64,000 nucleotides of DNA from Escherichia coli (GCF_044324875.1 NZ_CP172185.1); one strand, 5' to 3'; shown: positions 47,082 through 51,430, numbered from the stretch's first letter. The notes: a model not told the origin generated them from the sequence alone. A program made the numbers and translations.

Positions 47082-47378
47082 GGAAGGTGCGAATAAGCAG
47101 GTCATTTCTTCCCAAGCTGACTCGCTGATTAAAATTTCGCGGATCTGGGCCGATTTTTTTCCCGCAAACACATCGAATCAGCCTATTTAGGCTATTTTTT
47201 CCACCATTTCTGGCGTTATTTCCGGTTTTTACTGAGATCTCTCCCACTGACGTATCATTTGGTCCACCCGAAACAGGTTGGCTAGGGTGAATAACATCGC
47301 CAGTTGGTTATCGTTTTTCAGCAGCCCCTTGTATCTGGCTTTCACGAAGCCGAACTGCCGCTTGATGATGCGAAACGG
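47082..47378 (-). mobile_element. IS5-like element, terminal 297-bp fragment (transposase C-terminus ...[35 protein letters not shown] on minus strand), truncated by IS1
   Basis: terminal IR GGAAGGTGCGAATAAG at 47082; reading the minus strand gives the IS5 transposase C-terminus. Confidence 0.75.
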
Positions 47379-47424
47379 GGTAATGCTGCCAACTTACTGA
47401 TTTAGTGTATGATGGTGATTTTAA
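47379..47424 (+). mobile_element. IS1 left end (46 bp), separated from the rest of IS1 by the IS66-family insertion
   Basis: GGTAATGCTGCCAACTTACTGATTTAGTGTATGATGGTG matches the IS1 IRL. Confidence 0.8.
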
Positions 47425-47454
47425 GTAAGCGACTCGTCAGAACCGTATTGATAT

Positions 47455-49026
47455 TTACTGAGAGCTCAGATCAACTTTCCAGGGCAACAGATCGCGTACC
47501 CGGTTTGCCGGCCAGTCCTGGATATGTTCAATGACGTAACGCAGCCACTTTTCTGGCTCCACATTGTTCAGACGGCATGTGCCGATCAGCGAGTACAACA
47601 CCGCCGCATGTTCACCACCGCTGTCGGAACCCGCGAACATCCAGTTTTTCCGGCCTACGGCCACTCCCCGTAAGGCGTTCTCTGCGATGTTGTTGTCGAT
47701 TTCCACCCAGCCATTACTGCAGTACACGTTCAGTGCATCCCACTGTTTCAGCAGGTATGCGAACGCTTTTGCCGTATCTGAGTGACGCGACAGTGTTTTC
47801 ATCTGTTGCTGTATCCAGTCATACAGTGACTGCATCAGTGGCGCGGCTCTGGCTTTTCTTGCCGCCAGACGCTGTTCTGCTGAACAGCCCCGGACCTCTG
47901 CCTCGATGGCATACAGTTCACCGATACGCTGCAGGGCTTCCGTGGTGATGTAGGTGGGCGCTCTTGCATGCACATCGTGGATTTTTCTCCGGGCATGAGC
48001 CATACACGCGGCTTCCGTTATTCTGCCGGATTCGTATAACGCCCGGTAACCACCGTAAGCATCGGCCTGAAGCACACCGCTGTAACCGGCCAGGTGATTT
48101 TGTGGATGGATACCTTTCCGGTCCGGACTGTACGCGAACCAGACCGCCGGGGGCATCTGTGAACCGGCGTTACGGTCATCACGGACGTAGACCCACAGCC
48201 GGGCTGTCCGGGTTTTACCGCTGCCCGGCTCCTGGACCGGGACGGGGATATCATCAGCATGGACTTTACCGGGCATCAGCACATACTGGCGCAGGACGTC
48301 ATACAGCGGCTCCAGCAGTTCAGCAACAGCACCTGTCCAGCGCCCCAGTGTGGCACGGCTCAGCTCCACTCCCTGACGACGGTATATTTCTGACTGGCGG
48401 TATAACGGCAGATGGTCTGCATATTTCCCGGTGACAACATGGGCCAGAAGCCCCGCTCCGGCATAACTGCGTGCAATGGGTTTTGAAGGTACTGGTGCCT
48501 GCACGATATGGTCGCACCGGCAACAGGCCTGTTTCGGACGTTGTGTTTCGATAACCTTAAAGGCGCTGCTGATAAGCTCCAGTTGCTCTGACACATCACA
48601 TCCCAGAGAACTGAGTTCACCACCACAGGCAGGACAGCATTCCTCTTCCGGCCGGATAACCCGGGTTTCACGGGGAAGTGAGGCCGGTAACGGTTTACGG
48701 GCTGAAGACTGGCGCAGGGCGGATGGCAGTACCGGGTCATATTGCTCACCCAGCGTTTCCGCCATTTCTTCCTGAAGTGCGCTGATTCGCTCCTGTGCTT
48801 CCTGTATCTGCCGTTCGGTTTTTGCACGAAGTTTTTCTGAGCTTTTACCGAACTGCATACGTTGCAGTTTCGCAACCAGCGCCTTCAGCCGGTTGATTTC
48901 GGAAGCATAAGCCGCCACCCGCTGTGAGAGCAGGCGGTTGTATTCAGCCATCTGGCGGATGGTGTCCTGTTGCGTCTGCAACAGTGCCCGCAGGCGGGCG
49001 TTCTCATGAGCAAGTGAGGTGTCCAT
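47455..49026 (-). CDS. IS66-family transposase TnpC
   Basis: 523 aa; N-terminal coiled coil/leucine zipper, zinc-finger CPACGG, DDE region. Confidence 0.9.
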
Positions 49027-49045
49027 ATCCTCACTTTACAACGGG

Positions 49046-49393
49046 TTATATGCGGATTCCAGCGCGTTCCGTTCGTTTCGGGTGCTTCCAGTTGATACCT
49101 TCAAGAAGCATGGATAACTGAGCCGGAGTAAGGTGCACCTTGCCGTCACGGGTGACTGGCCAGACGAAGCGGCCCCGCTCCAGGCGTTTGGTGAAGAGGC
49201 ACAGTCCGTCACTGTCAGCCCACAACACTTTTATCTGGTCACCCCGGCGTCCGCGGAAGATGAACAGGTGTCCGGAGAACGGGTCATCCTTCAGGACGTT
49301 CTGAACTTTTGATGCCAGGCCGTTAAAGCCATTTCGCATATCGGTGATACCTGCAACCAGCCAGATACGCGAACCTGCAGGGAGAGATATCAT
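49046..49393 (-). CDS. IS66-family TnpB
   Basis: 115 aa; MISLPAGSRIWLVAGITDMRNGFNGLA is the conserved IS66 Orf2 signature. Confidence 0.9.
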   Translation of the reverse strand: MISLPAGSRIWLVAGITDMRNGFNGLASKVQNVLKDDPFSGHLFIFRGRRGDQIKVLWADSDGLCLFTKRLERGRFVWPVTRDGKVHLTPAQLSMLLEGINWKHPKRTERAGIRI

Positions 49394-50070
49394 CAGTGGC
49401 TGCTCCCTTTTATTTCGCGGATAAGTGTCTGTAATAACGCCGGCGTCAGTTTACCTTTAAGCCTGAGAGTTCCGGCCGGCAGAACCAGCTCACAACACAG
49501 ACTGTCGGACGGTGTATTTATCTGCTCTGGTTCCTGTGCGGGGGCCGGGATTTTATTATCCGGCTCCGGCGTTAACGTCACGGGAAGCAGTGCCGGCATA
49601 TTTTTTCCGGAAGGCAGCAGGCCACCTTTCCGGTATTGATGGCGCCAGTTGAAGAGCAGGTTATCGTTGATTCCGTTTTCCCGGGCGATCTGCGCCACAC
49701 AGGCTCCGGGCTGCAGTGACTGCTCCACTAAGGCGATTTTAAACTCATAAGGGAAGTTGGGCCGCCGGGGACGTTTTTTTACCACGGGGGCTTCGGATAT
49801 AACGGTGCTTTCAGGACGTACGACTGGTACCGTGGAAAATTGTCCGTAAAGGCAGGCATCAAGTTCCTGCTCCGACATGCCTGCGGGCAAAGGCCACGAA
49901 AGGCCAGCTCTCCGAAAGCGCACGAACATACTACAAACTGTTGATTTTGGTACACCCAGGCGACGCCCGGCCACAACCCGGGGTAAATGTTCTTCAAAGT
50001 GAAGACGTAAAGCTTCAGTGATCCAGGTCCGGTGTTTCATACGATAGTGTCCATTAAAAATGATGGACAT
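49393..50070 (-). CDS. IS66-family accessory protein (TnpA/Orf1-like with HTH)
   Basis: 225 aa; start overlaps the tnpB stop; N-terminal HTH. Confidence 0.7.
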   Translation of the reverse strand: MSIIFNGHYRMKHRTWITEALRLHFEEHLPRVVAGRRLGVPKSTVCSMFVRFRRAGLSWPLPAGMSEQELDACLYGQFSTVPVVRPESTVISEAPVVKKRPRRPNFPYEFKIALVEQSLQPGACVAQIARENGINDNLLFNWRHQYRKGGLLPSGKNMPALLPVTLTPEPDNKIPAPAQEPEQINTPSDSLCCELVLPAGTLRLKGKLTPALLQTLIREIKGSSH

Positions 50071-50140
50071 TATTTTTGTAGAGCCGGAGGAAACAGACCA
50101 GACGGTTTAAATGAGCCGGTTACGATTTTAAGGTGCTTGC

Positions 50141-50416
50141 GTGGCTTCCATTTCCATCAGATGTCCTTCCTGCTCCGCTACTGAAGGCGTGGTGCGTAAC
50201 GGCAAAAGCACTGCCGGACATCAGCGCTATCTCTGCTCTCATTGCCGTAAAACATGGCAACTACAGTTCACTTACACCGCCTCTCAGCCCGGTACGCACC
50301 AGAAAATCATTGATATGGCCATGAATAGCGTCGGATGTCGCGCCAGTGCACGCATTATGGGCGTTGGCCTCAACACGGTTTTACGTCACTTAAAAAACTC
50401 AGGCCGCAGTCGGTAA
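50141..50416 (+). CDS. insA: IS1 InsA
   Basis: 91 aa, [40 protein letters not shown]. Confidence 0.9.
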
Positions 50417-50790
50417 CCTCGCGCATACAACCGGGCAGTGATGTGATTGTCTGCGCTGAAATGGACGAACAGTGGGGCTACGTCGGTGCTAAATCACGTC
50501 AGCGCTGGCTGTTTTACGCGTATGACAGGATACGGAGGACGGTTGTGGCGCACGTCTTCGGTGAACGCACTCTGGCCACACTGGAGCGTCTTCTGAGCCT
50601 GCTGTCGGCCTTTGAGGTCGTGGTATGGATGACGGATGGCTGGCCGCTGTATGAATCACGCCTGAAGGGAAAGCTGCACGTTATCAGCAAGCGTTACACT
50701 CAGCGCATTGAGCGACATAATCTGAATCTGAGATCTGGCAAGGCTGGGACGGAAGTCACTGTCGTTCTCAAAATCGGTGGAGCTGCATGA
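50335..50790 (+). CDS. insB: IS1 InsB (expressed as InsAB by frameshift)
   Basis: matches the IS1 InsB region. Confidence 0.85.
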
Positions 50791-51430
50791 CAAGGTCATC
50801 GGGCATTATCTGAACATAAAACACTATCAGTAAGTTGGAGTCATTACCAACGGTAAATATCCATAAGTGTGGGCTTGCGGAATAAATAGTTTGGTTAAAG
50901 ATAAGGTGGTTTAATACTGCTGAGTATTTTATAGGAGATATGATGTTGTTTTATAAACAAACTAAAAAACATGAAGTTTAATTGATAGGGGACAATGAAA
51001 TCTCCTTTTTAAACTCAATTGCTATGTTGGGTTTATGGGGTTGCTATAAACGGTTTTGAATAAACGCTTTACTATTCTCATGAAAACAGTGTTATGTTGT
51101 TATTTTAACAACCCCGCATTGTTTTTTGATGGGATGGGTATTAAGACTTTAGAGAAACTTTATAAATAAATATATGTATTCAATAGTGGCGAAAATAATA
51201 ACCCATCTTATTATTACATTGTGGAAGTGCTCTTTTTTATTATCGCTCATGTTTTACCTTTCTGTTAAAACATATTCTTTCGGATATGTAAAATGGTAAG
51301 AGATAGTTAATCTACGTATGCATGGGGGCGTTTCATTGCATGGCGTTATAATCTGGCTTGTATATAAAGGCACTATAAGTTTTACTCTTACAGTGCCTTT
51401 ATTTGGCCATGATTTACCCTCTACAATAAA

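Follow-up and report, generated by a model that had tools for sequence, protein, structure and literature searches.

The 64,000-nt stretch of Escherichia coli DNA analyzed here (GCF_044324875.1, NZ_CP172185.1; hereafter 'the window') carries a selC-associated island in which a fos locus and a ykgR/GH31/MFS cluster converge on a non-coding gap. The gap is occupied by what are very probably three layers of known insertion sequences (ISs), nested between two sugar-utilization modules. From left to right, these are the tetranucleotide TTAG, nt 1–297 of IS5, nt 1–46 of IS1, a complete ISCro1, a second copy of the 8-bp sequence GATTTTAA, and the remainder of IS1 (Table 1). All three elements are already known and behave here as known; the structure is real but ordinary.

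Junction coordinates, given throughout as positions in the window, were read over 46500–51500 and then checked by script. Both procedures agreed to the base with an initial annotation, made from the sequence alone, that had described an IS5 fragment truncated by IS1 and an IS66-family element splitting that IS1 with an 8-bp duplication. One copy of GATTTTAA lies on each side of ISCro1, and the chance of finding an identical 8-mer at both of these predefined junctions is ~1.5e-5; the 8-mer occurs four times on the plus strand of the whole window. No further copies of IS1, IS5, or ISCro1 were found in the window.

The IS66-family insert can be identified more specifically as ISCro1, an element first named in Citrobacter rodentium and common on E. 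coli chromosomes and plasmids. It has 0 nt differences from the ISCro1 copies of pVTB933v-1 and the YZLc1-3 chromosome and 1–7 from eight others (10 copies labelled by the Prokaryotic Genome Annotation Pipeline [PGAP]). Its three open reading frames (ORFs), tnpA, tnpB, and tnpC, have the lengths annotated in reference copies (225, 115, and 523 aa); tnpB is identical across all 10 copies compared, and tnpC, which matches the Pfam families DDE_Tnp_IS66 (E 2.5e-103), zf-IS66, LZ_Tnp_IS66, and DDE_Tnp_IS66_C, has 0 aa differences from copies that PGAP labels WP_000381395.1. Read on the window strand, the ends of the element are GTAAGCGACTCG... and ...GAGCCGGTTAC; compared as termini, GTAAGCGACTCGTCAGAACCGT and GTAACCGGCTCATTTAAACCGT are imperfect repeats starting GTAA(G/C)CG, among which GTAAGCG, reportedly the terminal consensus of the IS66 family, is present. 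Like the published element, which is 2699 bp long and makes an 8-bp duplication (PMC12115866), the window copy combines that length with tnpA–tnpB–tnpC, terminal repeats, and an 8-bp target duplication, a rule kept in 10 of the 12 other full-length ISCro1 copies inspected. Nothing in the element itself departs from known ISCro1; what differs is its insertion site (IS1 nt 39–46, in a selC island), which is absent from the 5,426 complete E. coli genomes searched.

The timing of this insertion is given by a natural empty site. In silico removal of ISCro1 and one copy of GATTTTAA, a check proposed in the initial annotation, restored a contiguous IS1, albeit one of 763 bp instead of the 768 bp predicted. 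Its alignment with the intact 768-bp copy that NCTC9041 and EC958 have at this locus runs from one end to the other, so that the refuting outcome named in advance, the lack of such an alignment, did not arise. No base separates the reconstructed 763-bp IS1 from the uninterrupted copy at this locus of strain BEN2908, and window positions 43000–55000, treated in the same way (9294 bp), differ from BEN2908 by two single-nucleotide polymorphisms (SNPs), both in fos genes. The order fos, IS5 stump, uninterrupted IS1, ykgR/GH31 occurs in 17/5,426 genomes, which come from diverse hosts and lineages, and BEN2908 is the only one of the 17 with the 763-bp form; the ISCro1-interrupted arrangement of the window occurs in none of the 5,426. 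Since BEN2908 thus offers an empty site with the same 763-bp IS1, ISCro1 came last, after the 5-bp deletion that shortened IS1, and by ordinary transposition; since the copy is 100% identical to copies elsewhere, its arrival was recent. The proposed succession of IS5, IS1, and IS66-family element accordingly holds firmly for its last member, whereas the precedence of IS5 over IS1 follows from the truncation and their order of arrival is not open to proof.

BEN2908 also bears on other possible courses. That an IS1::ISCro1 composite moved into IS5 as a unit was rejected, as the identical IS1 stands uninterrupted at this position in BEN2908. ISCro1 might instead stem from such a composite at another site, perhaps on a plasmid, and have been brought in when two IS1 copies recombined or underwent gene conversion. 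Several plasmids and chromosomes of E. coli do carry IS1::ISCro1 nests, two of which have the insertion at IS1 nt 39–46 or 41–48, but those two potential donors are of the IS1A type (~91% identical) with the duplications GTTTTTGA or TTTTGAGG, whereas in the window ISCro1 is flanked left and right by GATTTTAA, the native IS1F-type sequence. The two IS1 arms, moreover, equal the BEN2908 copy, private SNP and 5-bp deletion included, and no IS1F-type junction of this kind occurs in the 5,426 genomes; we regard such an import as highly improbable. Slighter still is the probability that the interrupted state is ancestral and that ISCro1 was precisely excised from genomes of the BEN2908 kind. Short direct repeats such as these 8-bp copies do make such excision mechanistically possible, but 17 diverse genomes are uninterrupted, mostly in the undeleted 768-bp form, and none is interrupted, and the 100% identity of ISCro1 to other copies indicates a recent arrival. 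Ordinary transposition into an existing IS1 is the reading retained here.

The interrupted IS1 is, on alignment, an IS1F-type variant and a defective member of its group, not a separate element. It is 99.2% identical to the intact local copy, 98.4% to a PGAP-labelled IS1F family copy, and 90.8% to IS1A. Its ends (GGTAATGCTGCC... starting at 47379 and ...GGAGTCATTACC finishing at 50848) carry inverted repeats that match at 20/23 positions, and the promoter-like site, with its -10 at 47408–47413, corresponds to the IS1 promoter that overlaps the left inverted repeat (IRL) (PMC12428005). In Pfam, insA matches Zn_ribbon_InsA and HTH_Tnp_IS1, and insB matches DDE_Tnp_IS1 over profile positions 1–98 of 131 only. 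Two differences separate the copy from the 768-bp IS1: a SNP at 50327 (A here, G there), which changes InsA Gly to Ser, and a 5-bp deletion of ACAAC between 50732 and 50733, which swaps out the final 34 residues of the InsB frame; the identical copy in BEN2908 is annotated as 'frameshifted'. With standard IS1 it shares inverted repeats, a promoter-like site in IRL, insA, the A6C motif, and an insB frame, and it departs from it in being 763 and not 768 bp long, in the insA missense SNP, in lacking the target duplication, normally 8 or 9 bp (PMC12428005), and in being split by ISCro1. Because the InsB C-terminus is destroyed and ISCro1 splits the promoter from insA, the copy would be doubly disabled, and it is probably no longer capable of adjacent deletion unless transposase is supplied in trans.

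The leftmost layer is a stump of IS5. Its end, GGAAGGTGCGAATAAG, begins directly after TTAG, the terminal inverted repeat GGAAGGTGCGAA... is present, and the stump is identical at 296/297 positions (99.7%) to a 1196-bp copy of IS5 from K-12, a reference copy that carries the PGAP label 'IS5-like element ISKpn26 family'. Pfam gives a weak match to the C-terminal part of DDE_Tnp_1, and the same stump is annotated in BEN2908 as a partial IS5/IS1182 transposase. The reading of TTAG as a target site is based on the IS5 target preference, which we take to be YTAR. Of what marks a complete IS5 (both ends, a DDE transposase, and a 4-bp duplication), only nt 1–297 are found, and the sequence is thus a fragment. 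The likeness to K-12-type IS5 lies in those nucleotides, the terminal repeat, and TTAG at the outer boundary; the unlikeness is that the stump is a quarter of the element, with the second end and second target copy absent. No part of the missing 898–899 bp was found elsewhere in the window; the G at 47379 is assignable to either IS5 or IS1.

Adjacent deletion is classical IS1 behavior. Among related genomes, five independent deletions all begin exactly at an end of this IS1 copy (Table 1), and those on its right strip the GH31/MFS/LacI module stepwise. They resemble IS1-mediated adjacent deletion in that nested deletions issue from one end of a retained IS copy without target duplication (PMC11708052, which reviews IS-mediated adjacent deletion as a general phenomenon) and differ in being a natural polymorphism among genomes, not within the window itself. 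In strains of sequence type 131 (ST131), a bacteriophage exclusion (BREX)-containing module that has no counterpart in the window is joined to the same IS1–ykgR junction. Further ISs have also accumulated: strain 510016 (NZ_CP025851.1) has another ISCro1 in the IS5 stump, in opposite orientation and with the duplication TAACATCG (retrieved locus 5301–7999), as well as ISEc10, of the IS21 family, in the same IS1 ~5 bp left of the ISCro1 site of the window (retrieved locus 8126–10540), and other strains have IS5 or ISEc10 insertions close by. The comparison supports the view that deletions and exchanges of modules in this island family have repeatedly turned on this IS1 copy, which is a hotspot in the ordinary sense. 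The suggestion that the nest marks a recombination hotspot between the fos and GH31 regions is thereby upheld by the deletions from the IS1 ends, the alternative left module, and the extra IS insertions.

How the IS5 stump came to end at IS1 is a question on which the missing target duplication bears. None was present in the eight genomes inspected (the flanks in the window are GCGAAACGG on the left and AACGGTAAA on the right), and such absence is the usual sign of adjacent deletion or of recombination between ISs (PMC11708052). Because IS1 is without a target duplication in any genome examined, the stump did not arise from simple insertion alone; the missing duplication speaks against simple insertion, not against membership in IS1. 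We infer that at least one of the IS1 junctions was made by IS1-mediated adjacent deletion, which we favor, or by two IS1 copies recombining. We prefer insertion of IS1 into IS5 with a later deletion because this IS1 copy is demonstrably deletion-prone.

On this account, a K-12-type IS5 would first have entered TTAG ~150 bp downstream of the hairpin that follows fosK. An IS1F-type IS1 would next have come to abut IS5 nt 297, with loss of the other 898–899 bp of IS5 and of the DNA following it. IS1 then gained the SNP and the 5-bp insB deletion, a step that comparison places in a lineage shared with BEN2908 and that destroyed the C-terminus of InsAB'. Finally, ISCro1 transposed into IS1 nt 39–46, duplicating GATTTTAA, with BEN2908 as the natural empty site; its landing point between the IS1 -10 and the insA start (50141) cut IS1 off from its promoter.

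A different history would make the IS1–ykgR junction the older one, as in ST131, with the fos–IS5 segment joined to it later by recombination with a second IS1 inside an incoming IS5. This would suit the right junction, in which IS1 is followed by AACGGTAAAT and which is common to islands with different left modules (fos/IS5 stump; BREX in EC958; a direct fos flank in O78 strain 3), as well as the absence of a target duplication from every arrangement. It would also suit the BREX-side flank of EC958, which has no match anywhere in the window, so that the EC958 arrangement did not arise from a window-like island by simple deletion. The donor configuration it calls for (IS5::IS1 with duplication) was not seen, however, and the same IS1 copy yields five independent adjacent deletions, which makes deletion the simpler route. 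We consider this history unlikely, though deserving of more weight than the alternatives for the arrival of ISCro1, and keep to insertion followed by adjacent deletion.

Several points weigh against the nest as read here. The pentamer AACGG abuts IS1 on both sides (47374–47378 and 50849–50853) and is unexplained. Five base pairs are too few for an IS1 duplication, and genomes whose left or right flank differs do not share the pentamer; the pair is probably due to chance (~1/1024). The early steps, insertion of IS5 and abutment of IS1, are reconstructions, and no genome was found with a full IS5 at this junction or with an IS1 flanked by a duplication inside IS5. That this IS1 copy would be inactive is judged from its sequence only, and that ISCro1 would be active is judged from its undamaged ORFs, its identity to other copies, and its presence here but not at this site in BEN2908. 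Lastly, ISCro1 and IS1 are both repeats, and ISs are typical sites of misassembly, so that the one might have been misplaced inside the other. The exact element ends, the perfect 8-bp duplication of the native IS1 target, and the flanks collinear with BEN2908 leave such an artefact with a minimal probability; a false join would leave no target-site duplication behind, and misassembly is strongly disfavored.

The position of ISCro1 within IS1 recurs elsewhere. ISCro1 lies inside IS1 in several unrelated replicons, at ~9 different same-orientation positions, and three independent insertions (in the window, plasmid pEC4-2, and the TW10598 chromosome) fall within 2 bp of each other; together with the ISEc10 of 510016, these three fall in a stretch of ~15 bp close to the left end of IS1, on its inner side. 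For three of ~9 independent same-orientation ISCro1-in-IS1 events to share one site has a chance of roughly 1e-3, in a sample that is small and partly picked by similarity to the query, and in which orientation is not assessable without bias. A scan of genome contigs with the left-end 30-mer of ISCro1 yielded one contig only, from a metagenome-assembled genome, and hence no unbiased sample of sites. A hotspot shared by ISCro1 and ISEc10 has been reported upstream of afaA in ST131 (PMC8764528). We suggest tentatively, and as less probable than not, that ISCro1, and perhaps ISEc10 too, may land preferentially in IS1 nt 35–48, between the promoter -10 and the start of insA.

Other candidates were set aside. 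Five matches covering 100% of the query, in an O9 antigen cluster, have IS1, IS5, and ISCro1 side by side interrupting wzm/wbdC, not nested, and three more (matches H6, H9, and H12) have IS1 near ISCro1, again not nested. Shigella plasmid matches were rejected as further hotspot events, their nesting being reversed. One such plasmid, Shigella boydii pBS512_211 (NC_010660.1; retrieved locus 3604–6892), carries an ISCro1-like element that is interrupted after 72 bp by an IS1F-type IS1, itself split by ISEc22, of the IS66 family. In pETEC_80 (NC_009786.1; retrieved locus 3501–3602) and ~18 similar plasmids of enterotoxigenic E. coli, 80 bp remain of an ISCro1-like left end, adjoining IS630-family DNA whose last ~22 nt resemble IS1 nt 23–46 (12/14 over TTTwGTGkATGATG), possibly hinting at a target motif. 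As a target motif upstream of the insertion point, TTTwGTGkATGATG was rejected: it is shared by IS1 and one IS630-family site only and is absent from the other nine sites sampled.

Table 1. Features of the nest and its surroundings, deletions at the ends of the same IS1 copy in related genomes, and three ISCro1 insertions near the IS1 left end. Positions refer to the window unless marked as IS1 nt.
Feature	Position	Strand	Remarks
fosK, fructokinase gene	45839–46801		
Terminator-like hairpin after fosK	46910–46928; with T-run 46910–46936	+	End of fos transcription unit, upstream of nest
TTAG, retained left copy of 4-bp IS5 target site	47078–47081		Other copy lost along with rest of IS5
IS5 fragment, nt 1–297 of 1196-bp element	47082–47378	-	Terminal inverted repeat and last 49 transposase codons (47229–47378)
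IS1 nt 1–46	47379–47424	+	Left inverted repeat 47379–47401; promoter-like site CTGCCA-16-TATGAT 47386–47413
GATTTTAA, left target-duplication copy	47417–47424		IS1 nt 39–46
ISCro1 (IS66 family), 2699 bp	47425–50123	-	Imperfect terminal inverted repeats GTAAGCGACTCG.../GTAACCGGCTCA...
tnpC, IS66-family DDE transposase, 523 aa	47455–49026	-	Intact; Pfam
tnpB, IS66 accessory protein, 115 aa	49046–49393	-	Intact; Pfam TnpB_IS66, E 4.7e-40
tnpA, IS66 accessory protein with helix-turn-helix domain, 225 aa	49393–50070	-	Intact; Pfam HTH_Tnp_1, E 8.6e-15
GATTTTAA, right target-duplication copy	50124–50131		
IS1 nt 47–763	50132–50848	+	insA, A6C motif, insB frame, right inverted repeat 50826–50848
insA	50141–50416	+	GTG start, 91 aa
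A6C frameshift motif AAAAAAC	50392–50398	+	
insB frame, altered C-terminus	to 50790	+	
33-codon ORF, same position as BEN2908 gene ykgR (small membrane protein)	51149–51250	-	Between IS1 and GH31 gene
Right-hand deletion, SCU-316	50849–53908 lost		Resumes at 53909
Right-hand deletion, NCTC9041	50849–55001 lost		Resumes at 55002
Right-hand deletion, GDSC2BY4G	50849–56221 lost		Resumes at 56222
Right-hand deletion, PSJ-29 and several others	50849–58317 lost		Resumes at 58318
Left-hand deletion, O78 strain 3	47029–47378 lost		IS5 stump included
ISCro1 in IS1, window	IS1 nt 39–46		Duplication GATTTTAA; IS1F-type copy
ISCro1 in IS1, plasmid pEC4-2	IS1 nt 39–46		Duplication GTTTTTGA; IS1A
ISCro1 in IS1, TW10598 chromosome	IS1 nt 41–48		Duplication TTTTGAGG

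The window covers the entire island, from the yicL side to tRNA-Sec (59796–59890). Because both flanking units end facing the nest, the latter is without evident effect on neighboring genes; the small ykgR ORF was missed in an ORF listing with a 40-aa cut-off. ISs have accumulated here because insertions cost nothing between the fosK hairpin and the 3' ends of ykgR/GH31. The role of the nest is structural, and further ISs can land in its dead IS DNA without harm.

A close relative of the island is AGI-3, which is associated with selC in the avian pathogenic E. coli strain BEN2908 and carries the fos locus (Chouikha et al. 2006; Schouler et al. 2009, as cited in PMC3325963). Window positions 8351–64000 are collinear with BEN2908 at 99.2–100% identity, and both islands have fos, the IS5 stump, the 763-bp IS1, ykgR/GH31/MFS, the integrase, and tRNA-Sec; the BEN2908 genome paper makes no mention of the ISs of the nest. 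The islands differ in three ISs: ISCro1 in IS1 and an IS21-family element in the window only, and an ISCro1-like copy in BEN2908 only. The IS21-family element (2639 bp, 25814–28452) is flanked by the 5-bp repeat AACGC (25809–25813 and 28453–28457) and adjoins an hha-like gene; near-identical copies are annotated as istA of the IS21 family and istB of the ISSso4 family. The BEN2908 copy (NZ_LR740776.1, 4025274–4027950) is degenerate, 2676 bp long and 98.6% identical, with frameshifts, stops, and an 8-bp duplication, and window positions 35109–35116 (GGACGAGG) are its clean empty site. As the degenerate copy is found in BEN2908 only and the ISCro1 of the nest in the window only, each island has its own independent ISCro1-type insertion. 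Window positions 1–8350 (setC, yicL, nlpA, and a YopB/SseC-like gene) are absent from BEN2908 or only ~94% identical to it, with 99.3% identity to other E. coli lineages; this left flank unlike that of BEN2908 implies that the AGI-3-like island sits in a different chromosomal backbone.

The nest explains the separability of the fos and GH31 modules in selC islands and gives a clean order for the latest events in this one, the 5-bp deletion in IS1 and then the insertion of ISCro1, which is a strain-specific marker distinguishing this genome from BEN2908. Beyond such bookkeeping, it matters little. The series of deletions that spreads from one IS1 copy neatly illustrates, in nature, how IS1 mediates adjacent deletion, and a hotspot for ISCro1 and ISEc10 at the IS1 left end, if true, would add modestly to the scant knowledge of target preferences in the IS66 and IS21 families.

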